The notes under the pieces were generated by a model that made no database searches, had not been told where the DNA came from, and saw only the letters and a list, made by a program, of their open reading frames with translations. Below, in pieces: positions 1 to 34,266 of a stretch of DNA of 34,944 nt. The position numbers and the translations under genes were made by a program. Source of the stretch: Acidobacteriota bacterium (lineage in GTDB: Bacteria; Acidobacteriota; UBA4820; DSQY01); NCBI GenBank assembly GCA_021814085.1, contig JAKAJA010000001.1, positions 1 through 34,944 of the forward strand. The letters run 5' to 3'. The stretch's first letter is position 1. Each line of letters begins with the position of its first letter.

Positions 1-6
1 AGGACC

Positions 7-38
7 TGCTGTATCCGCGCAAAAAAGATTTGAAAAAG
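7..38. repeat. Terminal inverted repeat, Mu right-end equivalent (TGCTGTATCCGCGCAAAAAAGATTTGAAAAAG)
   Basis: Aligns without gaps to the reverse complement of 34886-34917 (TGATGTGAGGGCGCATGAAAGATTGGAACATG). Shared pattern is TG-N-TGT-N4-GCGCA-N2-AAAGATT-N-GAA; about 20 of 29 positions are identical from the TGT. Confidence 0.7.
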
Positions 39-167: not shown

Positions 168-3100
168 CTACGGCAACGCTTTGGCGTTATGGACGAGATA
201 CCACGTTACGCCGTCATTGCTAACCCAGTAATTGCCCGTGCCAGTTGTGAGGTTGTAGGCGTCAATAACGCCTGCATCTCCATCATTTACGGGCTCTTTC
301 CAGAACACCACCTTGTCCCGAAGGGCAACGAGTAGATTAGGCAAGGTAATCCCATCAGCGCCTATCCATCGCTGGCGAGGCCATTCATGCTCATCCGAAA
401 CGGCCCACAAGTGCGCTGCGGTCGTGGCTACGCCGTTGAGCCTGATCATAGGCTCAGCAGGGTGCAGCAGCACTTCCCACGCGGCTGTGACGCACCAGTC
501 ATGCGCACTACAGTCGTAGCCCATGACCGCAAGAGCCGCATCGGGCTCGGCGATTCGCTTACCCATCATCGCCTCATACTCAGCGCGGAGCTGCGCCATG
601 GTCATGGCACTCCAGTCGGCCATCAACACGAGCGTTTCAGGGCCGAAACATCCACCAGCAGGAGGGAGCGTGGGATCGGACGAGGACGTGGGGTCTGCGG
701 GCGTTGGGACCGTCTGCGCGTCCGTATCATTCGCCGTGGCAGCCTTGAAGATCCCCCATTTGTTCGCGTTCGGGGTGCTATTCAGGATGTTCGCCTGGTA
801 GTAGACGAAGATTTGGAACCAGTTCGGCGCGGTGCCGCTGGCGTTGAAAACGGGCACCATGAGCCCCGATCGAACCTCCGTGCCTGACGGCAGGGCGAAC
901 TGGACGCTTGAACTCCGTCCGATCACGGGTCTGTCCCATACGCGCCAACTGTCGATGTAGTATTTACTGGCGGTCTTCTTGATGAGGTTGCCCATGGCCT
1001 CAGCCAGCGTGCCGTCTTTGATTTCACTGTTCAGCACGTCCAGCCTCCCATCCACCTGATATTCAGCGAGAGGACTGGGGAGGAGCTGAGCGCTACCATA
1101 ATAGCCGTATGAACTCACCTGGTCGTAGCTATCTACCAGATAGAACAGCACATTGGGGATCGTACCGCCGGTGAGAGCGTACTTGAAATGGACCTTCACG
1201 CGCGTCGTCGTGATGCCCGCCTTGACCAAGCCCAACAGGTCTACTGGCTCGCATTCTTTGTAGGCCGAATCCTGATACTTCTGCACGCGCAGCGTCTTGA
1301 GGTAGGCGTTTGACGTCCACGAGATATCGAACTCGGCATGGTGCGGCCCGACCGACCCGGACACCAGGGCCACAGTCGGCGCGCTGGGGACGGCAGGCTT
1401 GCCACCACTTACTGTCCCAGATCCCGCCACGATGTTGGGGAGATATCCGGCATCCGTGTAGGCCGTCCCTCGAAAGGCACGCGCCTTGATAGTATTGATC
1501 GTGTTCCCAGCCTTGAGTTTGCGCTCGATCCAGAGCACCAGAGAGGTGTCCGTCGTCGCGCAGGTGCCCTCCACGGTGAACTTCCGCAGGGATGTGGTGT
1601 CCTGAAAAACCGCCTTCACCCTGTCGGCACCCGAGAAGTTGAAGGTCACCCCAAGGGACGCCTCCTTGCGCGTCGTGCCTGGGATGTCATCCAGGGGGCT
1701 CTCCAGGCTGATGGAACATGAGGCAGGCGGAGTATCGTCTGAGTCTGGGACCGTCCCGGCATCATAGACAGAAGACCACGCCGAAAAGACCGTGTGATCA
1801 TACCGGGAGCGAATGCGGCCGATGAGGGCCTTGCGCGCTATGCCGGGGCGGTTAATGGTGCAGGTCACGGTCCCGCGGCCAGCGGCCACGTCGTCCATGA
1901 CCTCCTTGTGGTCGATCTTGTTCCATGCAGACGGCGCGGAGTCCGGGTTGCTGGCGGTGCCGGTGACGGCCGCGAAGAGCTGGAGGACGCCCGCACCAGC
2001 GTCGTTCGGGATCGTCACATTGATGATCGTGGCCACCTTCGTATGGGTCACGCTGGAGATTGTAGGCGCCGTGGGCGCCGGGATAGCGCTCCCGCCCGCC
2101 GTTACAGACCCGGCATCATAGAGGGCCGTAAGGACACGTGGCCCGTTCTGGGCCTGCACCTTGACTCCGAGGGTTATGCCTCGTTTGAACCGCCGGTGGA
2201 AATGGCAGGTATATGGAGAGGCCTTCCCACTGACGTTAAAGGGCTTGTTGATGATTTTGCCATCGGGCTTGGTCACCTCAACATGCATGACGGAGGCCAT
2301 GCCCGTCCACGTCACCACAACATCCAGGTCGCATTCCTTGCCAGGGGTCCCGGGGATGTCATCAACCGCAGAGGCCAGCGCGACGCCTGTAATGACCGGT
2401 AGCGCATCATCTGAAGGTATGTCGTCTTCCGTGGAGGAGCTGTTCTCGTCAGAGGGCGTGCCCTCCTTGAGCGCTTCAGTCCGGGCTAGCACGTCCGCCC
2501 ACCAGAGTTTCCCCGCGGGCAAATAGAAGCCGCCGTAATAATAGCCGTCAGACTGGAGGTCCGGCTTGAAGCCCTTGGTCAGCCTGGGTTTGTCTCGGTC
2601 TTTGCCATCGGGCCAAACGGTCACTTCGAACCGCCAGATCAGATCTTTAATTTCATCATAGGGGTAGCGCCAGCGGCACTCCCAAAAGCGCCATAGGCGA
2701 TCCAGGTAAAGCGTCGCGCCGTTAGGGTAGGTCCCAACCTTCTCTCTACGTGGTTGGAGACGTGGGTAGATAGCCTCCGGGAAGACCGTGTCGAACATGG
2801 CGCTATAGGCCTTTGTGAACACGAAATCCACCGGCTCTGGCGGCTCTTCATCGTCCTCCAGCCAGGCATCCGTCCCCGCCGTGCCGGGGTCGGGCAGGGT
2901 GCCGTTCTCCTCGAGCAGGGCAAGCTCCACCACTCCGCCGTCGTCCAGACCCGTAGAAACGGACGTGACCAAGTAGACGACCCCGCCCAAGGAGACCGGC
3001 TGGCGCAGCTGGTAGGTGCTGCCATCGTCCGCCACCGTGCAAGTGTCAACTCCCTGGCGGTGTTGGGCCACCCAATTGTAAGTGCGATCCGCGATCTCCT

Positions 3101-4163
3101 GAAGTTTGGCCCGGTCGCGCGTGAATGGGAGATCGATCTCCAGCTTCTTCCCACCGTGGGGCATCCAGCCCCGCCGTGCCCAGCGGCCATCCATGCCCTT
3201 GATGACCACCTTGTCATAGCGGTCCGCCGCCACGGGCTTGACGGGCCCGCTGACGACCAGGTCATCGATGTTCTTGGGCAGTGAGCCATCGGCCGTTTCT
3301 GCCCGCTCGGCGAAATAGAGCACGCCCAGCTTCGTCCAGACCTGGGCATTGACCCACTTGCCCAGCTTCTCGCAGGCCTGGCCCGTCGTCAGCATGTCGA
3401 AGTTGGCCACATCCACGATGTCCGAATAGGTCACGGCATCGTAGAGGATGATTCGGTGGCCTGAATCGAACTGCCCCTCGGCGTCCAGCAATTTAGCCAG
3501 CAGCCAGGCCACCGTCTTCCCACGGAACCATGAGTCGAGGACGGTAATAGCATCCGTGGCCAAATAGTTGCACTTCAGCTTCTGCTTGAACGTGATGACG
3601 CTTCCCGCCACGGAGGCGACGGTCAGCTCCTGTTGAACGAGCTTGTTCCCGCCCGAAGACTGGGGCTTATAGTGTCCCAGTCGTATGATGTCACCGGCCA
3701 CGAGGGGCTCCCCGTTCGCGTCCAGGGCGCTGTTCACGGTGAGCTGCTTGGTCTGCTTCCCCCCAGTCACGATGGCGATCGCGCTATAGTCCCTTTTGAT
3801 CAGGCTCGCGTCGCCCTTATCGAGGCGCGCGAGCGGATCCAGAACCTGAACCGGCACGCGGTCTGTTTCGCTGTCAAGTTCCACCGAATCATAGGCAAGA
3901 TCCCCCTCCCACACTGGAACGCCGTCACGAAGCACCCTGAACCCATAGGCGGCGGGGGCGATGTCCAGCGTGCTAAGGTTCGATCTCGTGAAGATGCTAT
4001 TCCACGCAAGATCCGTGTTGTCCAGATCGATGCTTACATCGTCGGCTACGGCGAGACGGTCTGAGCCTTCAAGCCGCATGGAAAGTTGCGCGGACACGTC
4101 ATCCGGGAAGGGGATATCGGTATACACGCCAGCCTTGTCGCGCAGCTGGAGCCCATAGCTCAT
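168..4163 (-). CDS. Tail tip/host-specificity fibre protein, 1331 aa: N-terminal tail-tip region, two ~224-aa Ig-like super-repeats, putative receptor-binding domain, C-terminal Hint domain
   Basis: Last and largest gene of the tail module, ATGA-coupled to the preceding gene. Internal repeats each start with DDIPGT and contain a P/A/S linker (IPAPTAPT / VPSAPTV). The C-terminal 160 aa carry intein/Hedgehog blocks. Confidence 0.85.
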   Translation of the reverse strand: MSYGLQLRDKAGVYTDIPFPDDVSAQLSMRLEGSDRLAVADDVSIDLDNTDLAWNSIFTRSNLSTLDIAPAAYGFRVLRDGVPVWEGDLAYDSVELDSETDRVPVQVLDPLARLDKGDASLIKRDYSAIAIVTGGKQTKQLTVNSALDANGEPLVAGDIIRLGHYKPQSSGGNKLVQQELTVASVAGSVITFKQKLKCNYLATDAITVLDSWFRGKTVAWLLAKLLDAEGQFDSGHRIILYDAVTYSDIVDVANFDMLTTGQACEKLGKWVNAQVWTKLGVLYFAERAETADGSLPKNIDDLVVSGPVKPVAADRYDKVVIKGMDGRWARRGWMPHGGKKLEIDLPFTRDRAKLQEIADRTYNWVAQHRQGVDTCTVADDGSTYQLRQPVSLGGVVYLVTSVSTGLDDGGVVELALLEENGTLPDPGTAGTDAWLEDDEEPPEPVDFVFTKAYSAMFDTVFPEAIYPRLQPRREKVGTYPNGATLYLDRLWRFWECRWRYPYDEIKDLIWRFEVTVWPDGKDRDKPRLTKGFKPDLQSDGYYYGGFYLPAGKLWWADVLARTEALKEGTPSDENSSSTEDDIPSDDALPVITGVALASAVDDIPGTPGKECDLDVVVTWTGMASVMHVEVTKPDGKIINKPFNVSGKASPYTCHFHRRFKRGITLGVKVQAQNGPRVLTALYDAGSVTAGGSAIPAPTAPTISSVTHTKVATIINVTIPNDAGAGVLQLFAAVTGTASNPDSAPSAWNKIDHKEVMDDVAAGRGTVTCTINRPGIARKALIGRIRSRYDHTVFSAWSSVYDAGTVPDSDDTPPASCSISLESPLDDIPGTTRKEASLGVTFNFSGADRVKAVFQDTTSLRKFTVEGTCATTDTSLVLWIERKLKAGNTINTIKARAFRGTAYTDAGYLPNIVAGSGTVSGGKPAVPSAPTVALVSGSVGPHHAEFDISWTSNAYLKTLRVQKYQDSAYKECEPVDLLGLVKAGITTTRVKVHFKYALTGGTIPNVLFYLVDSYDQVSSYGYYGSAQLLPSPLAEYQVDGRLDVLNSEIKDGTLAEAMGNLIKKTASKYYIDSWRVWDRPVIGRSSSVQFALPSGTEVRSGLMVPVFNASGTAPNWFQIFVYYQANILNSTPNANKWGIFKAATANDTDAQTVPTPADPTSSSDPTLPPAGGCFGPETLVLMADWSAMTMAQLRAEYEAMMGKRIAEPDAALAVMGYDCSAHDWCVTAAWEVLLHPAEPMIRLNGVATTAAHLWAVSDEHEWPRQRWIGADGITLPNLLVALRDKVVFWKEPVNDGDAGVIDAYNLTTGTGNYWVSNDGVTWYLVHNAKALP
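171..650 (-). other. Hint (Hedgehog/intein-like, BIL-type) autoprocessing domain, the C-terminal 160 codons of the fibre gene
   Basis: GG|CFGPETLVLMADW (block A, Cys codon at 648-650), TTAAH (block B, TxxH), AYNLTTGTGNYWVSNDG (block F), WYLVHN (block G, HN at 186-191). Followed by AKALP and the stop. Confidence 0.75.
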
Positions 4164-4561
4164 GAAGTCGCCCCGAGGTGGACTGGGCTGGCCACGGCGG
4201 ACAGCCTGGTGGTGAACTCGAACTCCAGCGCTATTTCCACGGCCACGTTCACGCCGCCAAGGGATTTGGGGTCCGGATCATTGGACAGGGCGGCCCCGCG
4301 ATAGGTAACGCCCCCATCGAGAGAGAGGGTGAAGTTCGCCCCGTTCTCGGCGGCCAAAAGATTATCGAGAGAGGCCAGCTCCGAGGGCTCCAGCGTCCAT
4401 ATGATCTTACAACCGGCCCAGATGCCATGACGGTTCCGCCGGCGGGCCCCGCCCTTCGTCTTGACGACGTTCTCTTGGATGCGGTAAACGGGCACTACGG
4501 AGACGGGAGCCGGCATGGTCCCGCTATTGACCCCGGTCCATCGCACGTCATGACGAAACAT
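4160..4561 (-). CDS. Small minor tail protein (gpM/distal-tail-like by position), 133 aa from MFRHD
   Basis: ORF lies between the tape measure and the fibre gene. The ATG at 4561 overlaps the tape-measure stop region, and its stop overlaps the fibre ATG (ATGA at 4160-4163). Confidence 0.65.
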   Translation of the reverse strand: MFRHDVRWTGVNSGTMPAPVSVVPVYRIQENVVKTKGGARRRNRHGIWAGCKIIWTLEPSELASLDNLLAAENGANFTLSLDGGVTYRGAALSNDPDPKSLGGVNVAVEIALEFEFTTRLSAVASPVHLGATS

Positions 4562-7004
4562 CGCCGCCTCCGAAGGTAAGCCGCCTGTCCTCACGCGCCG
4601 CGCGGTCCAGCAGGCGCGCGGTCTGCCGGACGAAGCCCCGGCGGCCCGTGTCCATCATGGCGAAGCCGTGCAGGTGCATCTCGGAGCGGACATGGGCCCC
4701 CGCGCCAGCCAGCACGGCCGAAGGGCTGCTTGACTGCCCGGCCATGGCGGCCACGTCGCGCACCGTCTGCACGGTATCAACGAGCAGAGACTGAACGACG
4801 CTCTTAAAGTCGGACACCGGGGCGATGATTTCAGGGCCCGCCTCGCCCACCAGGCCGAACGTAGGCCGGTCCACCAGGCCGCCCGTGGCGAATGCCACGG
4901 AGGCACCCTTTGCCGCACCAGACAAGGCCGCCCACATGCTTTCGGCCATGATGGAAAAGCCCGTTGCAATCGCCACCCCTGCGAAGGGGATATAGCTGTG
5001 CGCGGCGAAGATTTCGGCGATTGCCGCACTCATGGCCGACGACGCTACCGCCTGGTTCGCCGCAATGGCAGGGGCAGCAGCAGCCGTTTGCGCGGCGGCA
5101 CCGGTAGCCGACGCCGTCGTCTTGGCGGTTTCACCGGTGACCCACGCCACGATGATCCCGGCCAAATAGGCAAGGAACTTGTTGACGAAAATCATAACGA
5201 AATCCACGATCATCGAGCGCAGGACCTGCGACCAGGACACGCGCATGCCCATGAGCATGGACCGAATGCCGTTGCTGACGGCGGTCATGGCCATCGTGAC
5301 GCGCTGGGCCAAGGCCGTGAGTGGTGCATTCATCTTCGTTTCGATTTCCTCGATGAATGCGCGGAAGGGCTCTGTCAGTTTCGTGAGGCGCTTCTGATAG
5401 GCGGCCTGTTGGCGCTGGAGCGCCTCATCTGACTTCCGCTGGGCCTCGTCCACGGCCTTCTGGTCGGCCATCTTCTCTTTGTCTAGGAACTCCTGCCGAA
5501 TCTCGGCGAGCCTGTTCTGCTTGTTCCTCTCGATCAGCCCCAGCATGTTCGCCAGTTCCGTGGCATCGGCGATCTGCTGCCGCGCCAGGCTCGCATCTTC
5601 GAAGGCCTGGATGCGCACCTTCGCTTCGGCCTGGTCCTGCGGCGCCAGGCTCTCCATCCGTATTCGCGCGGCCGCGTCAACCCAGGCCTGCTTGCCCTTC
5701 TCTACCTTGTCCAAGACACTCTTCCAAAAATCCTCCGCGGCCTTTTTGGCCTCTGCCATGGACTTCTTCCACGCGGCCTCGGCCTTGTTGGCCGCATCCA
5801 CCTCGGCCTGGCCCTTGAGTTTGGCCAACAGGACGTTCGCGGCGGCCACCTCCTCATCGATGGCCTTCTGGCGGGCGTTTGTCTGGGGCGCATCGTCGCC
5901 CTTAAATCTGGCCAGGATGGCCTGCGCCTTGGAGACGGCATTCAGGCGGTCTGCCATGTCCCGAAGGCGCATGAGGGCCAACTCGAAACCGCCGGTCGTC
6001 AGCACGTCAACGAACCCGCGGCCCAATGCAATGCCGGCCTTCGATGAATTTTCCCCGGCTTCCTGCATTACAGGCACCAGCGCATCAAGCGCCCCCCTCA
6101 TTGACTCGATCGCGGGCAGAAAAGCACCACCTACGCCCTTCTTGAAATCTCCGAGTGCGATGGTGAATTCGTTAATTTTTGCCTTGGCATCGGTGGTGCT
6201 CGCCGTGACGCCATCTTGCTTTTGCGTGAGCTGGGCGAGCGCCGAGGCGCACTGTTCCGTCACGGATCTGGTTCGGTCGATCTGAATACCGTATTCCGCC
6301 AGTGTCTTGGGCAGCAGCGCGCGCTGCGACCCGGCGATTAGCCCGATCATGAGGTCGAGCGTCTCGTTAAAGTCCTTGTTGTATTTGATGTTCCAGCCCA
6401 CCGCCACACGAACCGCATCTATGGCCTGCGTCAGATCGCCGGTCACGGGGAGCATGCGCATGATGGCGGCGCGGGTAAGGTCATCCTCGAACCCGGCCGC
6501 CTTCATGGCCGTGGTGAACTCTTCCACCTGGGCCTGGGCCAGCCCGGTCTTGAGGCCCATATCCTGAAACTGGGCCGCGAGGCCGTTGATCTCGCGCTGT
6601 TCCTGCGCCGCATCAATGATGCCGGTCTTAACGTACTCAATCGCCCGCCTAGCCGTCTCCGCGGTCAGGTAGAGGGCAACGAAGTTCTTGACCAAATCGG
6701 CGAGCGCCGCTTGCCCTTGCTTTCCGGCGCTTTCGACCTGCTTGCCCATGTCCCTGGAGGCCGATCCGGCCTTCTTCATGTCATTTTCGATCTCGCTGCG
6801 CCACCAATTACCCTTGGTAATCGCGGCATTGAGCGCGGACTCATAGGCCTTGGTTTCCGCCGACAGCTCTACCTTCGAGCCGGGCTCGCCCTTGAAGGCA
6901 TTGAGGCGCGCTTTAGCGGCCTCTAACCCCGCCTTTAATTGGTCCATGAGGGGCTGAAGGTTCGCGACCAGCTCTACCTGCATGGTTTCAATGGTGTCAG
7001 GCAT
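4548..7004 (-). CDS. Tail tape measure protein, 818 aa
   Basis: Long Ala/Gln/Lys-rich coiled-coil ORF with central hydrophobic segments, positioned after the two chaperone ORFs. GGAGGG RBS 4 nt upstream of the ATG. Confidence 0.9.
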   Translation of the reverse strand: MPDTIETMQVELVANLQPLMDQLKAGLEAAKARLNAFKGEPGSKVELSAETKAYESALNAAITKGNWWRSEIENDMKKAGSASRDMGKQVESAGKQGQAALADLVKNFVALYLTAETARRAIEYVKTGIIDAAQEQREINGLAAQFQDMGLKTGLAQAQVEEFTTAMKAAGFEDDLTRAAIMRMLPVTGDLTQAIDAVRVAVGWNIKYNKDFNETLDLMIGLIAGSQRALLPKTLAEYGIQIDRTRSVTEQCASALAQLTQKQDGVTASTTDAKAKINEFTIALGDFKKGVGGAFLPAIESMRGALDALVPVMQEAGENSSKAGIALGRGFVDVLTTGGFELALMRLRDMADRLNAVSKAQAILARFKGDDAPQTNARQKAIDEEVAAANVLLAKLKGQAEVDAANKAEAAWKKSMAEAKKAAEDFWKSVLDKVEKGKQAWVDAAARIRMESLAPQDQAEAKVRIQAFEDASLARQQIADATELANMLGLIERNKQNRLAEIRQEFLDKEKMADQKAVDEAQRKSDEALQRQQAAYQKRLTKLTEPFRAFIEEIETKMNAPLTALAQRVTMAMTAVSNGIRSMLMGMRVSWSQVLRSMIVDFVMIFVNKFLAYLAGIIVAWVTGETAKTTASATGAAAQTAAAAPAIAANQAVASSAMSAAIAEIFAAHSYIPFAGVAIATGFSIMAESMWAALSGAAKGASVAFATGGLVDRPTFGLVGEAGPEIIAPVSDFKSVVQSLLVDTVQTVRDVAAMAGQSSSPSAVLAGAGAHVRSEMHLHGFAMMDTGRRGFVRQTARLLDRAAREDRRLTFGGGDVSS

Positions 7005-25377: not shown

Positions 25378-25625
25378 ATCCCCTCCAGGTGGGCCTCGGT
25401 GACGGCCTTGCAAATGGCCAGGCCCAGCAGGTCGTCCAGGTCGCAGGGCGCTGGGCCGAACCGAGAGACGGCGAGGACGCGCTCGATGCACGGCTGGTGG
25501 CCGTTGGCGGCCCGCCTGGCCCAACTGAGCGCCTCCAGGGGTTCAGGGATGTGCGCCGCGGGGCCCGCGTGGCCGAGGGCCTCCCCTACTTCCTTCCATT
25601 TGGCGAGGATCTCGTCGCGGGTCAT
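25374..25625 (-). CDS. Hypothetical protein, 83 aa
   Basis: ATGA overlaps at both ends. Coding-like composition. Confidence 0.6.
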   Translation of the reverse strand: MTRDEILAKWKEVGEALGHAGPAAHIPEPLEALSWARRAANGHQPCIERVLAVSRFGPAPCDLDDLLGLAICKAVTEAHLEGI

Positions 25626-26821
25626 GCCGCCGCACCTTTCTCGGCGCGCATGCGCCGGTGGACGCGCAGGAGGACTAGATAGCCCATGAAGTCCTGCTCG
25701 GTGTCTTCTCCTGCGGCTTCGCCGCGCATGAGACGCGAGAGCTTGTCGTCCAGGCGCACCCGGATCTGTTCCTCGGGATCGGCCTTGCTGAAGACCCTCA
25801 CCGGGTCGAGGGCGCTGTTGCCGTAGGCCCGGTTCTTGGCCATGAGCATCTCGGCCAGGGCTTCGCACTCGTCCCAGATGGCCCGTTGGATCGGGTTCAT
25901 GGTTTCATCGGTGAGGACGAAGGACAGGTCCGCGTCTTCCCCGAGCGACAGGGCCAGGTGGCGGGTCTCCACGGCGTAGCCCTCCGTCTCGCAGCGCACG
26001 GCGTAGAGGCCCACGGGCAGGAAGGGGACGCAGAAGCGGCCGTCCTGGCCCGTCGCCGCCCCCTGGAAGCCTTGGAGCCGCGGGCCGGTCACCTTGATGA
26101 GGACATTCGGGAGGGCCGACCCGCCCTGATCCGTGACGCAGCCGTGGAGGCCAGCGCCCATGGCCCGGTCTTTCAACTCAAAGATCTCGGGCGCGGCTTG
26201 GATGGTGGCCGCGGCGCGCTCGCTCGCATTGTTGAAGCTGGACGTGGACGGGAGGTAGGGGTCTGGGCTGGGCTCGGCGGCCTTGGCCTGGTGCTTTCGG
26301 TCCGCTAATGCGTCGGCCTTGGCCTGGCGGGCCTTTTCCAGTTGGAGCGCCATGCGCCCGTCGGCCTTCCGCGCGGCCAGGGAACAGGCGCTGCAGGTTT
26401 TGGCCTTCCCGTACTGGTTCATCCAGCCCGTTTCACACGCGGGGCAGGGGATTTTGTGATTCGTGCCCACGACGACAGCGCCGAGGATCGTGACCGTGGC
26501 GCCTTCCGGCAGGGGCCTGTCCCCGTACTTGTGCTTCCTCTCCTCGGTTTTCGGCATGTTCATCTCCCGTTCAACGTGTTCAACGCCTGGGCGCGACGGC
26601 TTCGCGTCCGGCTTGGCGATGTAGTGATGGCAGGCCCCGCGCTCGCAGAGGCCCCTGGCGGGCTCCGCGCGGTCCTGCTCTTGGCGCTGGTGGCAGACGG
26701 GCGCCCCGATGACGAACCCCGCGGACAGGCACATGTGGCCGCCCCGCACCGGGAACTTGCGATCCACCCGCGCGACGGCCAGGTCGGCGCTCCCACATAG
26801 GCCTTCAAGGGGATGGCTCAT
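25622..26821 (-). CDS. Multidomain early protein, 399 aa: Cys-rich N-terminus, zinc-ribbon (CPAC...CSAC), carboxypeptidase-regulatory-like beta-sandwich, DUF1599-like C-terminus
   Basis: The ATG at 26821 overlaps the stop of the upstream micro-ORF (ATGA). GCVTDQGGSALPNVLIKV...GQDGRFCVPFLPVGLYAVRCETEGY fits CarboxypepD_reg. NPIQRAIWDE...KNRAYGNSA...RVRLDDKLSRL...DFMGYLVLL fits DUF1599. An alternative internal start exists at 26557 (GGGAG RBS). Confidence 0.6.
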   Translation of the reverse strand: MSHPLEGLCGSADLAVARVDRKFPVRGGHMCLSAGFVIGAPVCHQRQEQDRAEPARGLCERGACHHYIAKPDAKPSRPGVEHVEREMNMPKTEERKHKYGDRPLPEGATVTILGAVVVGTNHKIPCPACETGWMNQYGKAKTCSACSLAARKADGRMALQLEKARQAKADALADRKHQAKAAEPSPDPYLPSTSSFNNASERAAATIQAAPEIFELKDRAMGAGLHGCVTDQGGSALPNVLIKVTGPRLQGFQGAATGQDGRFCVPFLPVGLYAVRCETEGYAVETRHLALSLGEDADLSFVLTDETMNPIQRAIWDECEALAEMLMAKNRAYGNSALDPVRVFSKADPEEQIRVRLDDKLSRLMRGEAAGEDTEQDFMGYLVLLRVHRRMRAEKGAAA

Positions 26822-26901
26822 GGGTTTACGTCCCGGTTTCTGAGGCGCCAGAGCCAGGCCAGCGCGATGAACCAGGCGAGGAGCATGGCAGCGACTTTCA
26901 T
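26818..26901 (-). CDS. 27-aa hydrophobic micro-ORF (MKVAAMLLAWFIALAWLWRLRNRDVNP)
   Basis: GGAGA RBS. ATGA overlaps with both the HNH stop and the next gene's start. One predicted TM helix. Confidence 0.45.
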   Translation of the reverse strand: MKVAAMLLAWFIALAWLWRLRNRDVNP

Positions 26902-27263
26902 GAGGGATCTCCGAAAAGGGCCTGGAAGCCCTTGGTGCGCTCGCGGGTTTCGCGGGCGTGCTCCTGCCGCATGGGCATATCCAGGCGGTTGTGGCAGCCC
27001 TCGCAGAGGGCGAGCAGGTTCTCGGGGCGATGGTCCCAGGGCAACTGGTTGATGTGGTGGACGGTGAGGACCACGGCGCGCTTGCGCCAGTAGAGACGGT
27101 ACCCCTGAGTGAGATGGCACCGGCCAGGGTGGCCTCCGCCGCCGTCATGCTCCTCGCCGCATTGCCCGGTGCATTCGCAGCGCCACCCCGCGCGCTCCTT
27201 CACAGCGTAGGAGATCGCGTGCCAGTCCGGCCCGTAGACGCTCTGATCCTTTACGGGGCTCAC
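26898..27263 (-). CDS. HNH endonuclease, 121 aa from a GTG
   Basis: WRCECTGQCG...VLTVHHINQLPWDHRPENLLALCEGCHN (the H-N-H and Cys-pair pattern). GTGA overlap with the upstream stop. Confidence 0.8.
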   Translation of the reverse strand: MSPVKDQSVYGPDWHAISYAVKERAGWRCECTGQCGEEHDGGGGHPGRCHLTQGYRLYWRKRAVVLTVHHINQLPWDHRPENLLALCEGCHNRLDMPMRQEHARETRERTKGFQALFGDPS

Positions 27264-29353: not shown

Positions 29354-30268
29354 TTAGCTGGCCTTGAGCAGGATGATGCCGCTCGCCGCCCGTACGTGAT
29401 CCGCCGTCACTTCGCCTGCCTTGTTGAGCCGCGCCACGCGCTGGGCCTGCGCGGCCAGCTTGGAGGCCGCCCTGAAGCTCTGGGTATGGCCGACCTTGGT
29501 GATGGCGCGCCGGGCCGCCGTGTCATGGATGTTGAGCCGGTCAAGGTATTCGGCCAGATCTGGCTCGGTAGGGTTTCCCACGGTGATGAAATAATCGACC
29601 CGGCTATACAGCTGGGCCATGCTCTCTGAGGCATTTGGCCCACGGGTGAGGGTGCGCTGGAGCTGGGGGGCACCCGCGAGTAGGAGGCCCAGTTGCTTGG
29701 TATCGAGCAGGGTGCGCATCCCCTCGAGAGCGCGCCGGTTCAGGGCGTCCGCCTCATCCAGGATGAGCAGCTTACCCTTCAGGCGCTTCTTGGCCTGCTG
29801 CATCATGACGGCGGTGGTGGCCCCGCCGCCTTCCTCGCCGAGGATAGCCTGGAGCAGGTAGAAGAGCGTTGTGGTCACGTCGCAGCGGACGAGGACAACA
29901 CCATCGTTCTCCACGTAATATTTATTGAGCGCCTCGGTCTTTCCCACACCCGGCAGGCCGATGATGACGCCGAAACCCTTGTTTTCCTGACACTCGCGGC
30001 ACACCTCGTGGATCATTAGGAGGCCCTGAGTGTCCACCGGCCCCTGGCCGATCTGGGTAATCTCCGCAAGGAACTTCTCCACCCGCCTATTCATGGTCTC
30101 TGGCGTGCTGTACGTCCCATGCCGCCAAGACGACAGGCCAGAGTCCGCGATCCCCATCTTCCGGGCCACCTCGGCCCAGGGCCACCCTCTCTGCTGGCGG
30201 TAGGCCTCAAGTTTCGCCACCAGCGTCGGGTCCGTCGCTCCCGTTCTTTGTTCTTGGTTTACCGGCAT
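29354..30268 (-). CDS. MuB-like AAA+ DNA transposition ATPase, 304 aa from MPVNQ
   Basis: Walker A GLPGVGKT and Walker B LLILDEAD. N-terminal HTH-like WAEVARKMGIADSGLSSW. Immediately downstream of the transposase. GGAGG RBS 5 nt before the ATG at 30268. Confidence 0.85.
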   Translation of the reverse strand: MPVNQEQRTGATDPTLVAKLEAYRQQRGWPWAEVARKMGIADSGLSSWRHGTYSTPETMNRRVEKFLAEITQIGQGPVDTQGLLMIHEVCRECQENKGFGVIIGLPGVGKTEALNKYYVENDGVVLVRCDVTTTLFYLLQAILGEEGGGATTAVMMQQAKKRLKGKLLILDEADALNRRALEGMRTLLDTKQLGLLLAGAPQLQRTLTRGPNASESMAQLYSRVDYFITVGNPTEPDLAEYLDRLNIHDTAARRAITKVGHTQSFRAASKLAAQAQRVARLNKAGEVTADHVRAASGIILLKAS

Positions 30269-30352
30269 CGTCACCTCCTCTATCTCGCCCTCTCGATCAG
30301 CACTCAGCTCACATACCCGCCCGTGCGGGCTGTTCGCATGTCACAACAAGGT

Positions 30353-32335
30353 CTAGGGTCTCGTCTCCTTGCTCTCCGGTTCTGGTTGAAAGCCCCACAG
30401 CCTGAGCACCTGGCCGCTGACCGCCGCTGCCTGGGCGGCCGTAGGGGGTAGTGCGGGGGCCTCGGCGGCCTTCCTAGCGGCCCGGCTGAGACGCCCCGTC
30501 TGCTGGATTACTGGCTGTTCTTGGCCGTTGGTGTCGCATCTTGTGATGGGGGGCAGGTAGAGCGAGAACCGGCTCTGGCGGAGCCGCTCCTTAAAGGCCT
30601 TTTCCACTGCCTTTCGCTTCCGGATAACCTCGGCCACGAGGGCCTTCTCCTCTTCGGTCTCGGCCATGGCTGGCAACGACTCCACGAGGGCGGCCTTGCA
30701 TAGAAACTGCCCCTTGCGGATCACGGTCACCGTCGCGGGATCATTGGGGTTGTAGAAGACCTCCACCGGGCACTCCAGCCCGAGCATGTTGTCGTGGTCG
30801 TAGGCGTTCCCGTGGACGGTGATTCTGCCGCCTTTCTGGATGATCCTGTTCACCTTGGGGAAGCACAGGAGGTCGAGGAGTGTCTCGTGCGGCATGACCG
30901 CCGGGCGCGCGTTCCGCATCCAGGCCTGGCTAGGCGTTAGGCCCTTGAGCCCGCGATGCTTGTGGTTGTGGTAGTGCTCCATGGCCAGCTCGAAAATGGC
31001 GCTGAACTCGTACCACATGAGCAGGGGAGGGCGCTCGTCTTCCGGTTTCCCTGCCTTTATCCATTTCTGGGTCTGAGCCACTTGAATGCTTGCAGTCTCT
31101 GGCCGGTTGGACGGCTTGTTGCCGATGTAGCCCGGCAGAAGGTTCAGGACGAACGAATAGACCGTTCGGAAACCACGCTCGATGACCTTGGACTGGCCGT
31201 GATAGGGCTGGCAGAAATGCACCTTCGTGCCGATCTCGCCGAAAAACCCCGCGCCTATGGTCTCCTCGCTCTGGTGGTAGACGAGGTGGGTTTCCCCGTT
31301 CAGATGCTTGGAGCGGTAGTCCCTCCCGTTGTCCATGAGCACGTGGTCTGGTCGGCCGCACCAAGGGAGGCCCTCTTTCTTGATGATCCCATCCCGCATG
31401 GCGCGGGCGATGCTCATGGAGTTGGGCCCGAAGTTCAGGTCGTACCCGACGAGGGCGCGGGAGCACCAGTCCATCCACCCGGTCAACCAGGGTCGCTGAA
31501 TGGTGTCGTCGGGGGCGACCACAAGGACATCTATTTGGTGGTGGTCTCCCACCCAGATCTCATTGCAGTGCTCGGGCGCAAGCCGCTGGACGTAGGCCTC
31601 GTGCCGGTCTCGGTAGGCCTTCGAGCCCTGTCGCGCATAGGTGGCGTACGCCGGGTTATCCTCAATCGCCGTGGCGATCCACCGCGCCAGGGTGGAGTAG
31701 GGCGGCGCCTGGGGGCCGAATTCGGCCCGAAGGGCGTGGTGGACCTGGATTTTCATCGGGCGCTCAGGCTGGAAGTAGAGCCGTTCGCAAAAGGCCGCGA
31801 CTTCGGGGGGGAAGTTGGTGGTGCCCTTGGTCCGACCGCTTCTATTAAGTAAGGATGGGGATGCCCCGTCGAACCGCTTCTTCCAGTTATAGAGGGTCTG
31901 CATGGTGACCTTGTGGGCCTTGGCGAATACCGTCCGCTCCGTGGTGCTGCCGAGCGCGAGCCACTCCTCCAGTAGGCGCTTGCGCCTATCGGCATCTCTG
32001 CGCTTCGGGGCCGGTGCGGCCATGTAGGAGGCCTGGCTGCCGGAGGGGGCCGGGGTGGGCAACGCCATTTGCGCCTGCACCAGCCCATCGATATGGCTGG
32101 CCAGCAGCACGTCTGACTGCTCCTTGCGATACGCCATCTGCGCATCGAGTTGCAGACATGAAACATGGACCTGCCATTTCTCCCCGTTCCGGCATGGGGC
32201 CTTCCGGGTGGCCGCGTATGTCCCTTTTGTGAGTTTCCTTGAGACGGCTTGGCGCGAGATGCCCTCTAAGGTTGCAGTTCGATCGAGGTCAAGCCAGCCT
32301 GCTTCGTCAAGTTGATTCGTCGTGGTGTCAGGCAT
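30353..32335 (-). CDS. MuA-like DDE transposase, 660 aa
   Basis: WVGDHH (first D), VLMDNGRDYRS (second D, about 71 aa later), PYHGQSKVIERGF (E, about 51 aa later). N-terminal HTH-like region. Confidence 0.9.
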   Translation of the reverse strand: MPDTTTNQLDEAGWLDLDRTATLEGISRQAVSRKLTKGTYAATRKAPCRNGEKWQVHVSCLQLDAQMAYRKEQSDVLLASHIDGLVQAQMALPTPAPSGSQASYMAAPAPKRRDADRRKRLLEEWLALGSTTERTVFAKAHKVTMQTLYNWKKRFDGASPSLLNRSGRTKGTTNFPPEVAAFCERLYFQPERPMKIQVHHALRAEFGPQAPPYSTLARWIATAIEDNPAYATYARQGSKAYRDRHEAYVQRLAPEHCNEIWVGDHHQIDVLVVAPDDTIQRPWLTGWMDWCSRALVGYDLNFGPNSMSIARAMRDGIIKKEGLPWCGRPDHVLMDNGRDYRSKHLNGETHLVYHQSEETIGAGFFGEIGTKVHFCQPYHGQSKVIERGFRTVYSFVLNLLPGYIGNKPSNRPETASIQVAQTQKWIKAGKPEDERPPLLMWYEFSAIFELAMEHYHNHKHRGLKGLTPSQAWMRNARPAVMPHETLLDLLCFPKVNRIIQKGGRITVHGNAYDHDNMLGLECPVEVFYNPNDPATVTVIRKGQFLCKAALVESLPAMAETEEEKALVAEVIRKRKAVEKAFKERLRQSRFSLYLPPITRCDTNGQEQPVIQQTGRLSRAARKAAEAPALPPTAAQAAAVSGQVLRLWGFQPEPESKETRP

Positions 32336-32400
32336 TTAGCGCCTCATTGGTGTGGTTGCAGTTCGATCGATCAGAAGTTGCAGTTAAAGTTGCAGTTCGG
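32270..32400. repeat. Four copies of GTTGCAGTT, two within an identical 17-mer GGTTGCAGTTCGATCGA (32270-32286 and 32354-32370)
   Basis: Read directly. Further copies lie at 32377-32385 and 32389-32397. The 17-mer is read in different frames in the transposase N-terminus and in the upstream 85-aa ORF. Confidence 0.85.
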
Positions 32401-32585
32401 AGGCCGTTTACACAAAGCAGACAAGCCGCCGATTTAAGGTCCTTTTTAATGAAGGTCAGCGTCGCTTCTCGCCCGAACGCTCCCGGCATGCAGACAATGC
32501 AGATCCCGTGGCTCAGGCCGCTCCGAACGAGCCGTACCAGGTCCACGCTCTGGATGCTGCCGCACCACGCGCAACAGGTGGTCAT
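32328..32585 (-). CDS. Cys-rich small protein, 85 aa
   Basis: CCAWCG...HGICIVC motif. ATGA overlap upstream and an 8-nt overlap with the transposase start. Confidence 0.55.
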   Translation of the reverse strand: MTTCCAWCGSIQSVDLVRLVRSGLSHGICIVCMPGAFGREATLTFIKKDLKSAACLLCVNGLRTATLTATSDRSNCNHTNEALNA

Positions 32586-33031
32586 GCCTCGTCCTCAAAG
32601 AGGGTGGGAGCGTCATGGGAAAGGATGGCCTTCTGGAACCCTGCGGCCTTCTCCAGCTCCGCCTGGATGGCGGTGAGGGCGGCCTCGGCGCTCTGGCGGC
32701 CGTGGTAGAAGCCGCAGACGGCCTTCATGGCGGCGGCCTGGCTTGCCTGATACTCGGCCAGCTCGGCCTCGCGCGCCGCCCTCACGCGGGGCAGGCGCAC
32801 CATCACAAACCCGAGCCGTGCGGCCAGGTGCTTGAGGATGCTGTAATCGCGGGTCTTTTCCATGAGGGGGATGAGATGCTTCGAATTGATCCGGGCCTCT
32901 TCATCGAGCGGGTTGCTCAAGCGGTAGAGCGTTCCCGGCTTGACCCCGAGCGCATCCGCCAGCTCCTCGATGCCCTCGCCGCCCCTGTACCGGCGGACCG
33001 TCGCCGCAACGACCTGGTCCAATGTCTTCAC
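32582..33031 (-). CDS. Early regulatory protein with N-terminal HTH (CII/CP76-like guess), 149 aa from a GTG
   Basis: IEELADALGVKPGTLYRLSNP helix-turn-helix. GGAGGGGG RBS. Confidence 0.55.
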   Translation of the reverse strand: MKTLDQVVAATVRRYRGGEGIEELADALGVKPGTLYRLSNPLDEEARINSKHLIPLMEKTRDYSILKHLAARLGFVMVRLPRVRAAREAELAEYQASQAAAMKAVCGFYHGRQSAEAALTAIQAELEKAAGFQKAILSHDAPTLFEDEA

Positions 33032-33194
33032 GGGTCCCCCTCCACTACCGTCCGAGATGTCGGACGTTGATTAACTCCCTGATTCCACTAATTGACTGAC
33101 GCCCCTCCAGGCCCTAGACTGAAAAGAGTGGGGCCCCCAGGAGCGACCCAGGGACCCCGTTGAGGAATGGAGGGGGAAGCATAGCGAGAGCACG

Positions 33195-33467
33195 TCACGC
33201 GGCCTTCTCCTGTGAAGGGAAGAGGACCTGCATTGGGATACCTGTAAGGTGGGCCAGCGCGGTCTCAATGCGCGCTGACCGCCAGTGCCCGTTGAGTACG
33301 GCCGACACGGCCTGCCGAGACACACCGACGCGTGTGGAGAAGGCGAAGATGGTACCGTGTGAGCCCTTGATGGCTGCCAGGCAAACCCTTCGCCGGAACT
33401 CCTTGATGGAGAGATCGGCGGGGATCATGACCGACAGCGCCGAGGCGGTCTTGTTAGAAGGGGCCAT
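33195..33467 (-). CDS. ner: Ner-like DNA-binding protein, 90 aa
   Basis: IFAFSTRVGVSRQAVSAVLNGHWRSARIETALAHLTGIPMQVLFP resembles the Ner/HTH_35 family. It is the first gene of the early operon, divergent from the repressor. Confidence 0.7.
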   Translation of the reverse strand: MAPSNKTASALSVMIPADLSIKEFRRRVCLAAIKGSHGTIFAFSTRVGVSRQAVSAVLNGHWRSARIETALAHLTGIPMQVLFPSQEKAA

Positions 33468-33470
33468 CAC

Positions 33471-33558
33471 GAACGCTCCTAATGAAGTTCGTCACCGGCT
33501 CTCGTGAGCCGTAGTGATATATTAGGTTCTGCCTAACTAATTGTCAAGGGGGTTATTA
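33471..33558. promoter_or_regulatory. Divergent immunity control region: early promoter (minus), repressor promoter (plus) and operator-like dyads
   Basis: Minus strand: TTGACA (33547-33542), 17 nt, TAATAT (33524-33519). Plus strand: extended -10 TGATATATT (33515-33523). Dyad TTAGG-ttctg-CCTAA (33522-33536) lies in the early promoter spacer. Further dyad ACGAAC-N12-GTTCGT (33469-33492). Confidence 0.6.
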
Positions 33559-34266
33559 GTGAAACCGGAACGACTTGATTTATTAAAGGAGTTTGGCGAG
33601 CGGCTTCAGCTCTTCCGGCTTTCGCTGGGGCAGACCATGCGGGAGTTCTCGGATGTCGCCGGGATCAGCGCCCCCTCTTTGGCGGCCGTGGAAGCCGGGA
33701 AGAACTTCCTCTCCACTGAATACATCGTCCAACTCTTTCAGGCCTATGGGCTCAGCCCCACCTGGCTATTGACGGGGTACGGCCCGCGGATCGTCCAGCC
33801 GATTATCAACGGCCAGGTCGCCGAGCTGGCCGGCGAGTACAATGCCGGGTACCCATTGATCAGGGTTCCAATTCTGAGCAGCTTTCTCTCCTTGGGTGAA
33901 CCGGTTCCGCAACCCAAAGAGCGCATCAAAGATTGGGCCCAGGTGATCAAGCCCTTGGTCCCCCATCCACGTCACACCTACGGGCTGCATGCACGCGGAG
34001 ACTCGATGCACCCTATCATTCAAGATGGATGGCTTGTTTTAGTTGACACGCACGAAGATGCTATCCGCCCTTATGAGCAGCAGAGCGGCAAGCCTGTTGC
34101 CGTACGCCTTGGAGAGGGGGTGAGCATCAAGTGGATGGATGCTGGAAAGTCTGATTGGATCATTCACGCAGAGAACCAGGCCAGTGGGTTTAAGCCCCTT
34201 CGAATCCCGCGCCAGGTGGACCCGCCGGTGGTAGGCCGTGTCATTTGGTGGTGCCCTTCTATATAA
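33559..34266 (+). CDS. CI/LexA-like repressor: XRE HTH plus S24 peptidase domain, 235 aa from a GTG
   Basis: QTMREFSDVAGISAPSLAAVEAG HTH. GDSMHP Ser motif and a downstream SIKW Lys. AAGGGGG RBS 6 nt before the GTG at 33559. Confidence 0.85.
   Translation: MKPERLDLLKEFGERLQLFRLSLGQTMREFSDVAGISAPSLAAVEAGKNFLSTEYIVQLFQAYGLSPTWLLTGYGPRIVQPIINGQVAELAGEYNAGYPLIRVPILSSFLSLGEPVPQPKERIKDWAQVIKPLVPHPRHTYGLHARGDSMHPIIQDGWLVLVDTHEDAIRPYEQQSGKPVAVRLGEGVSIKWMDAGKSDWIIHAENQASGFKPLRIPRQVDPPVVGRVIWWCPSI

Follow-up and report, generated by a model that had tools for sequence, protein, structure and literature searches.

A divergent Hint domain at the C-terminus of a putative tail fibre protein in a Mu-like phage from an Acidobacteriota genome

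A stretch of 34,944 nucleotides from an Acidobacteriota bacterium (assembly GCA_021814085.1, contig JAKAJA010000001.1; the whole stretch is called the window below) was analysed. Judged by its genes the window looks like a Mu-like transposable phage, a nearly complete genome of a transposable siphophage, whose last gene codes for a 1331-amino-acid (aa) protein interpreted as a tail-tip fibre. By sequence homology and predicted structure the last 160 residues of this protein are a real Hint (Hedgehog/intein) domain, whose fold and homology can be regarded as established. The domain represents a divergent Hint subfamily that is missed by curated models. With a probability of about one half, these 160 residues would be a catalytically competent mini-Hint, similar to the type A bacterial intein-like (BIL) domains, acting as a maturation module that removes itself from the fibre. 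The Hint domain as such is known; new are the divergent Hint/BIL subfamily, its terminal position on a virion protein and its conserved N-x-K end. The gene and the parts of its product are the following.

168-4163, minus strand: gene of the putative tail-tip fibre/host-specificity protein, last gene of the phage, carrying the module (listing of open reading frames (ORFs); follows the 818-aa tape-measure-like and 144-aa genes; matches P0002-P0005 at E<=1e-184)
2421-4163, minus strand: conserved N-terminal part of ~581 aa, presumed tail-attachment or hub part (alignments A3, A5)
657-1463, minus strand: distal region of ~270 aa, presumed to bind the receptor, ending in the Thr/Pro/Ser linker (comparison with P0010 and P0005)
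651-728, minus strand: Thr/Pro/Ser-rich linker TDAQTVPTPADPTSSSDPTLPPAGG (sequence of the window and of relatives)
186-650, minus strand: Hint domain proper, C1172-N1326, 155 aa, 17.2 kDa (profile against PDB, AlphaFold2, Foldseek)
645-650, minus strand: start of block A, Cys1172 (predicted nucleophile) and Phe1173, both invariant (alignment A1)
411-422, minus strand: block B TxxH, T1248-A-A-H1251 (sequence and A1; in register with the TxxH of the TvoVMA intein)
186-260, minus strand: blocks F and G, AYNLTTGTGNYWVSNDGVTWYLVHN (A1; aligns to AYDLTVDGFHSYYVS..LVHN of UmbC)
171-185, minus strand: C-terminal flank AKALP (sequence and A1)

The codon of Cys1172 occupies positions 650-648; G1170-G1171 stand just before it and F1173 after it. 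H1325 and N1326 are encoded at 191-186 and AKALP at 185-171, including the invariant Lys1328 (position +2) at 182-180, and the stop codon lies at 170-168. The full uncleaved chain has a mass of 144.7 kDa, and the predicted new C-terminus is G1171, at the end of the linker. An initial annotation, made from the letters of the sequence, had placed a Hint module at 171-650 at the end of the 1331-aa ORF, behind a Thr/Pro/Ser-rich linker and a Hedgehog-style G/CF junction. Its coordinates and frame were exact, the linker was found at ~728-651 and the junction, GG/CF, at residues 1170-1173. The statement that all canonical blocks are present goes slightly too far, since in block F the Asp is replaced by Asn and the His by Gly. 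The invariant Lys at +2 had not been noticed.

A search with the whole protein yielded four metagenomic homologues (P0002-P0005, E<=1e-184), and an exhaustive phmmer search with the 162-aa module yielded three further true members (P0007, P0008 and P0010). Two other phmmer matches, P0006 with ankyrin repeats and P0009 with fibronectin-type repeats, were recognised on reading as repeat artefacts and discarded. The same terminal module is present in six of the metagenomic relatives (P0002, P0003, P0005, P0007, P0008 and P0010), which makes seven sequences with the window protein. The members are apparently phages of Acidobacteriota-like hosts. In the alignment of the seven module sequences (A1) pairwise identity is 21-53%, and the family can be described by the pattern (E/D/T)PPxGG[GSA]/CF ... 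T/S-x-x-H ... [LV][VA][HS]N-[AVLT]-K-x(1-4)-stop, where the slash before CF marks the junction.

Nine columns of A1 are invariant: G-2, C1, F2, G75 and H82 (two positions of block B, H82 being its His), W152, L154, N157 (the terminal Asn) and K159 (+2). All nine are located in Hint blocks A, B or G or at most two residues from the junctions (hypergeometric P ~3e-5). The block B His is present in 7/7 sequences, preceded three residues upstream by Thr in six and by Ser in one. The penultimate His is found in six of the seven (P0010 has Ser there). On the N-terminal side every member has a small residue (G, S or A) at -1, preceded by a PPxGG motif, and the [GSA]/CF junction is common to all of them. 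On the C-terminal side 3-6 residues follow the Asn in every member; the first of these (+1) is A, V or L in 6/7, Ala in the window protein and Thr in P0010. This distribution of invariant residues suggests purifying selection on Hint chemistry.

When the A1 profile was compared with the sequences of the PDB, the matches were almost exclusively Hint proteins. The top match was UmbC (chain 8w20_A, E=3.1e-7), with an alignment of 139-146 residues that takes in CF... and ...AYDLTVDG..YYVS..LVHN. It was followed by the NrdJ-1 intein (E=2.6e-4) and the TvoVMA intein (E=7e-4), the latter in register at TxxH and HN. Weaker matches were the RadA and GyrA inteins, Tetrahymena BIL2 and Hedgehog (E ~0.2 for Hedgehog). 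The 8w20 structure is that of UmbC, an umbrella-toxin protein of Streptomyces (PMC11062931), and its Hint is therefore the pre-toxin Hint (PT-HINT) of a polymorphic toxin. No solved structure matches the family better in sequence. Stalks of polymorphic toxins can consist of phage tail-fibre repeats (PMC3482391). A PT-HINT stands immediately before a C-terminal toxin, which it sets free, and an immunity gene comes next; in contrast, the phage module has neither toxin nor immunity gene, and its carrier is a phage structural gene.

A template-free AlphaFold2 model calculated from A1 had a mean pLDDT (predicted local distance difference test) of 89 and a pTM (predicted template-modelling score) of 0.87. 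At its end, residues 160-162 have pLDDT <50; the Lys at +2 (model position 159) belongs to a block averaging 84. Foldseek comparison of the model with the PDB gave 33 matches at E<=1e-3, all of them Hint folds, with TM (template-modelling) scores of 0.6-0.73 and probability 1.0 to mini-inteins, BIL domains and the Hedgehog HhC domain. Among these were NrdJ-1 (E=3e-7, TM 0.71), BIL2 of Tetrahymena BUBL in second rank (E=7e-7), the Ssp DnaB mini-intein (TM 0.73), the Clostridium thermocellum BIL (2lwy, E=2.5e-6; the A1 profile had no HMMER match to 2lwy), HhC (E=2-4e-4) and, lower in the ranking, a Vint domain. The structure prediction that the initial annotation had proposed as a check thus came out in its favour (33/33 PDB matches being Hint folds). 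The Hint assignment holds because family conservation, profile-to-PDB similarity and the predicted fold support it independently of one another.

No further members of the family carrying the Hint were found in IMG/VR (searched with the full protein, A3 and A4), in GTDB genomes (A3) or in JGI metagenomes (A3, A4); these searches yielded just two relatives, L004 and L005, both of them Hint-less. GenBank phages contained no relative of the family when three different family Hints served as queries in megablast and tblastn. With the UmbC Hint as probe, GenBank phages returned only classical inteins in helicase, portal and terminase genes and a Ruminococcus phage protein with an internal Hint, and no terminal Hint on a fibre. 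In PHROGs no tail family with a Hint was found with the relatives' Hints or the UmbC Hint as queries. Full-text literature searches turned up no description of a phage fibre with a Hint/BIL domain; "Hint domain" combined with phage led to inteins in TerL, RNR and other enzymes.

Two observations made in the course of these searches concern other phage proteins. The Ruminococcus phage NatCom_29429 (PV036441.1) encodes at L006:5482-6780 a 432-aa hypothetical protein with a pre-toxin-type Hint in its middle (33% identity to the UmbC Hint) and ~125 aa after it, a polymorphic-toxin-like or intein-like arrangement in a gut phage that recurs in two sister phages. The BFVD entries A0A6J5QMR4, A0A6J5MFV5, A0A218MKA3_1 and A0A6J5NY54 have a Hint fold in uncultured-phage proteins named collagen triple-helix, fibronectin III, "gp62" or PASTA, and may be further Hints on fibrous virion proteins. 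Because of these entries and the Hint peptidases on tail-fibre-repeat stalks of polymorphic toxins, an association between Hint domains and fibrous phage-like proteins can be said to exist in the databases.

How might the module work? In all Hint reactions Cys1 is the nucleophile of the first step, and the Thr and His of block B polarise the scissile bond. The fibre would fold in the reducing cytoplasm of the host, and Cys1172, aided by Thr1248 and His1251 of block B, would attack the carbonyl of Gly1171 in an N-S acyl shift. The Gly1171 thioester would then be resolved by water or by a cellular thiol, yielding a free Hint of 17.7 kDa (17.70) and a mature fibre of 127.06 kDa ending in ...PPAGG. 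The N-terminal junction is assumed to be the productive one because no cargo follows the Asn, because 6/7 members have no nucleophile at +1 and because the block F Asp is replaced by Asn or Ser. Beyond the observed fold, homology, conservation of catalytic residues, position and phage context, we infer thioester formation, cleavage, its timing and any chaperone role. Cleavage at the N-terminal junction would match the behaviour of Hedgehog/Hog proteins and of BIL domains; in the latter, cleavage products dominate (PMC4031507).

Among known systems the module would work most like a type A BIL, with a topology like that of HhC and a sequence nearest to the pre-toxin Hints. A type A BIL is defined as a Hint with a C-terminal His-Asn and no +1 nucleophile (PMC4031507). 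The phage module shares with these domains (Amitai 2003; Dassa 2004; 2lwy) the mini-Hint with Cys1, block B TxxH, C-terminal His-Asn and lack of a +1 nucleophile, the location within a variable region of a surface or extracellular protein, and the expectation that the junctions are cleaved, ligation being possible. It differs from them in the 3-6 aa after the Asn, the invariant Lys at +2 and the virion protein as carrier. Class 1 mini-inteins (Ssp DnaB, NrdJ-1) are the best structural matches (TM 0.71-0.73) and have blocks A, B and G and a C-terminal Asn, usually as His-Asn. The phage module, however, is not inserted in a conserved host protein and has no C-extein, no Cys, Ser or Thr at +1 (6/7), no block F Asp and no homing endonuclease; it is not a mobile intein.

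In its position the module would take the slot of the S74 intramolecular chaperone autocleavage (ICA) domain, with unrelated chemistry. S74 domains have a Ser-Lys dyad in a trimer-dependent site; the domain is needed transiently and then cuts itself off. Such domains, known from tailspikes and also as the ICA domain of MyRF (PMC8326128), occupy, like the phage module, the very C-terminal end of a fibre or spike (endosialidase, T5 pb1), presumably with the same logic. This is analogy, not homology, since fold and chemistry are unrelated, the Ser-Lys dyad standing against the proposed Cys thioester. Neither Peptidase_S74 nor any other Pfam domain matched the whole protein, and its C-terminal fold is Hint.

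Several points weigh against a self-cleaving fibre. Curated profiles of Pfam, NCBIfam and PHROGs, with Hint, Hint_2, PT-HINT and Intein_splicing among the Pfam models, gave 0 matches at E<=10 with the whole 1331-aa protein and with its last 183 aa, so that the profile search proposed by the initial annotation failed for the window sequence. The Pfam model Hint (PF01079) was touched only by P0010 and P0005, at 15-17 bits (cutoff 29.7) and over the first 30-48 residues only. Likewise, the window protein had no phmmer match among PDB sequences and the 183-aa query none in a word-indexed protein search; the same type of search with A1 missed even the query's own protein, and its null result is uninformative. 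The block F Asp (F:4), which in class 1 inteins coordinates branch formation, is replaced by Asn in six members and by Ser in P0005, and the window protein has Gly in place of the block F His. Plain N-terminal cleavage leaves unexplained why the terminal Asn and the Lys at +2 vary as little as the nucleophile and why 6/7 members retain the penultimate His; Hedgehog-type domains that cleave only N-terminally do without His-Asn. The known family consists of seven sequences, all metagenomic. Self-cleavage of the fibre is predicted from sequence and modelled fold, and a chaperone or trimerisation role would be pure analogy. Finally, the name "tail fibre" used in the initial annotation has its basis in the place of the gene, the last tail gene after the tape measure and a small protein, and by the modular architecture of the product; it is this synteny and architecture on which the interpretation as a tail-tip host-specificity/fibre protein with exchangeable receptor-binding cassettes is based.

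The Hint could instead be a non-catalytic terminal knob that stays on the virion, either as a cap with a structural role or within the receptor-binding tip, with the junction residues retained for folding. The missing catalytic Asp and His of block F, the scores of curated Hint models below threshold and the Ser of P0010 in place of the penultimate His are compatible with such a role, as is the position of the domain at the usual place of receptor-binding heads. We nevertheless consider it rather unlikely. Invariance falls precisely on the nucleophile, the block B His, the neighbours of the scissile bond and the terminal Asn, a concentration with the low P value given above. Surface positions, which in a binding domain would be expected to be conserved or diversified in patches, belong to a sequence that is just 21-53% identical overall, and a flexible, PT-rich Gly-Gly linker in front of the domain is typical of a leaving group, not of an integrated tip.

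Another possibility is that the thioester is not simply cleaved but used for ligation, in a BIL-type reaction employing both junctions. In one version Asn1326 would cyclise and free AKALP, whose alpha-amine would attack the Gly1171 thioester to give a fibre of 127.55 kDa ending in ...PPAGG-AKALP. In the other version the epsilon-amine of Lys1328 would attack the thioester, and the resulting isopeptide would produce a branched end or a Hint tethered through its tail. Ligation in either version would give a role to the invariant terminal Asn and Lys +2 and to the penultimate His found in 6/7, and it has precedents. Type A BILs can splice without a +1 nucleophile: the Asn cyclises, and the alpha-amine set free in this way attacks the N-terminal thioester (PMC4031507). 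In BIL2 of Tetrahymena BUBL (6y75/6tmm) a Lys of the C-terminal flank attacks the thioester at the N-terminal junction and forms a K(epsilon-NH2)-C-terminal isopeptide (PMC8616854). The statement of the initial annotation that protein splicing is impossible was therefore too strong. BIL2 resembles the phage module as its second-ranking structural match and in an N-terminal flank ending in Gly-Gly, as in ubiquitin-like proteins; it differs in being eukaryotic and flanked by two folded ubiquitin-like domains. On the other hand, cleavage products dominate in BILs, adding 3-6 poorly conserved residues that could simply be encoded has no obvious benefit, the +1 residue is Val or Leu in three members and thus poor for aminolysis, the Lys at +2 could be structural, and the end of the model (residues 160-162) is of low confidence. 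We find ligation doubtful.

The same doubt applies to the Hint as a ligase-like device on the virion protein, which would pass the Gly1171 thioester to the Lys at +2, to a Lys of a neighbouring chain or virion protein, or to a nucleophile of the host envelope. If true, the first recipient would give a BUBL-like isopeptide or a branched end to the fibre, the second would lock the trimer tip covalently, and the third would make adsorption covalent. Phage tail assembly or host attachment would then, for the first time, be seen to use thioester-mediated, ATP-independent ligation of proteins.

It is improbable that the uncleaved precursor stays on the virion as a latent thioester warhead. In such a case the Gly1171 thioester would be discharged on an external nucleophile, be it a host-envelope amine or hydroxyl or a Lys in a different protein of the virion, and lead to covalent, irreversible adsorption or to cross-linking, comparable to the transfer of Hedgehog to cholesterol. 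Hint thioesters can, in general intein chemistry, stay stable until a nucleophile arrives, and the domain is situated at the very tip of the adsorption organelle. The module shares with the Hedgehog/Hog HhC domain (1at0) the C-terminal position, the Gly-Gly/Cys-Phe junction, an N-terminal product that would be the functional one, and the Hint fold. HhC, however, is eukaryotic and has a sterol-recognition region after the Hint and no terminal His-Asn, whereas the phage module has His-Asn and the 5-aa tail AKALP, with no region for sterol or substrate recognition, and matches Hedgehog weakly in sequence. Of the likeness to Hedgehog noted in the initial annotation the GG/CF junction stands; the nearest sequence relatives are pre-toxin Hints and inteins. 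BIL2 is known to conjugate its N-terminal flank to other proteins (PMC8616854). Against the warhead, the thiol-rich cytoplasm should discharge the thioester before release, and there is no precedent in phages.

That the module is a remnant without present function, a decaying intein or the toxin-less stump of a polymorphic-toxin cassette (tail-fibre stalk, Hint, toxin), is hardly credible: the best sequence match is indeed the pre-toxin Hint of the UmbC umbrella toxin and polymorphic toxins do have Hint peptidases on tail-fibre-repeat stalks (PMC3482391), but seven proteins, some of them as little as 21% identical, retain both their catalytic residues and a toxin-less end with a tail of 3-6 aa, the gene belongs to a bona fide phage tail module, and no immunity-like gene lies downstream, the stop codon being 158 nt from the end of the phage.

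The carrier protein is modular. Its N-terminal 581 aa are 44-59% identical among relatives with and without the Hint end (alignments A3, A5). L004 and L005 keep this part and have no Hint; P0004, like L004, has a different C-terminus without Hint. P0010 has another N-terminus but shares with the window protein the distal 270 aa (38% identity, E=2e-43) and the Hint, and in P0005 the Hint is attached to a distal region without similarity to the pre-Hint region of the window protein. Thus, from these alignments, the module is portable and dispensable, occurring on at least two unrelated distal domains and two different N-terminal scaffolds. An accessory maturation cassette travelling with receptor-binding tips would be expected to behave in this way.

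Other parts of the proteins vary as well. The L005 protein (L005:6001-10476, from the Acidobacteria metagenome-assembled genome (MAG) JAJYLT010000017) ends not in the distal domain and Hint but in long BNR/sortilin-like "DGG.TW" propeller repeats. P0002, P0003, P0007 (mid-protein) and P0008 contain runs of ~20-aa repeats (HYYSGDVDATLWLEARPDG / KYAGEV.ATLWL.A..RP), which are absent from the window protein; in the latter a DDIPGT..KE(C/A) Ig-like module occurs twice, at about residues 590 and 850. Mid-protein repeats in the relatives versus Ig-like copies in the window protein point to cassette exchange along the shaft. Profiles of the N-terminal 581 aa and of the middle 589 aa had no match in the PDB, nor did the protein match any Pfam, PHROG or NCBIfam family, and an AlphaFold2 model of residues 1-581 was unusable (pLDDT 45).

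The possibility that the module is a recent foreign insert was rejected: the GC content across 171-650 is 0.54-0.64, inside the range of the rest of the gene, and there is no compositional sign of recent acquisition. Plus-strand ORFs overlapping the fibre gene (30-335, 313-519, 387-887 and 523-801) were treated as GC-rich shadow ORFs.

The following features define the phage context.

1-10, no strand: junction between the right end of the phage (...GGATACA) and flanking DNA (window compared with L007)
4160-4594, minus strand: gene for a 144-aa protein between tape measure and fibre, conserved in position, 133-155 aa in relatives, without matches
4548-7004, minus strand: tape-measure-like gene, 818 aa, assigned by size and position, with equivalents of 803-820 aa in relatives and no family match
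29354-30274: MuB-like AAA ATPase with helix-turn-helix (HTH), part of the Mu-like early region
30353-32335: MuA-type transposase, part of the Mu-like early region
33541-34266, plus strand: divergently transcribed repressor with HTH and Peptidase_S24, part of the Mu-like early region (29354-34266)

Genes for terminase, portal, a Mu F-like protein, head protease/major head protein and a major tail protein with an Ig-like domain are found further along the strand of the fibre gene. The 818-aa tape-measure-like gene, the 144-aa gene and the 1331-aa gene follow each other in this order, and the same order was seen in four related contigs, among them L001, L003 and the contig of P0002. The whole window had no DNA match in GenBank phages. 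In the early/middle region, a 508-aa protein encoded at 25622-27148 contains a CarboxypepD_reg Ig-like domain (E=3e-12), which is unusual outside the structural module.

The end of the phage could be located with a second contig, L007, which has an identical fibre gene. It is identical to the window down to coordinate ~9-10 (...GGATACA) and then diverges; judged from the two sequences, the point of divergence is the right end of a Mu-type transposon at two insertion sites. The flank in L007 (window 1-10 compared with L007:6150-6294) contains short tandem repeats, CCCAAAT x4 and CTCTCCCG x3. The window has no ORF after the fibre gene, and in L001, an Acidobacteriota MAG, host genes on the opposite strand come directly after the giant gene. 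In L003 (12538-13383) and in the P0002 contig a gene of 267-281 aa belonging to Pfam Gp80 (PF23140) lies 3' of the fibre gene; since the window and L001 lack this gene, the Hint module does not require it as a partner. A perfect hairpin, AAACCGGCAA(C/G)TTGCCGGTTT, at 96-116, ~50 nt past the fibre stop codon and followed by a T-run on the plus strand only, is a candidate, perhaps bidirectional, terminator; a consensus scan made no call.

In phage fibres and spikes, C-terminal S74 chaperone domains are known to be shed, or separate assembly chaperones are used. Judging from sequence and predicted fold, the fibre described here is probably matured, or possibly ligated, by thioester chemistry undescribed for phage fibres. 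A Hint/BIL domain in the slot of S74 would be a second, chemically unrelated solution, with a Cys thioester instead of the Ser-Lys dyad. Similar modules are probably under-annotated in viral metagenomes because the family escapes Pfam, NCBIfam and PHROGs. For the engineering of receptor-binding proteins and for thioester ligation, a 155-aa, naturally C-terminal and, as predicted, traceless self-cleaving tag on receptor-binding cassettes would be useful. The placement is surprising for phage and intein specialists alike. The invariant Asn and Lys +2 pose the question whether the thioester is hydrolysed or transferred, and a new principle would be involved only in the case of transfer. The range of Hint domains, so far inteins, Hedgehog proteins, BILs and pre-toxin Hints, would extend to virion maturation.

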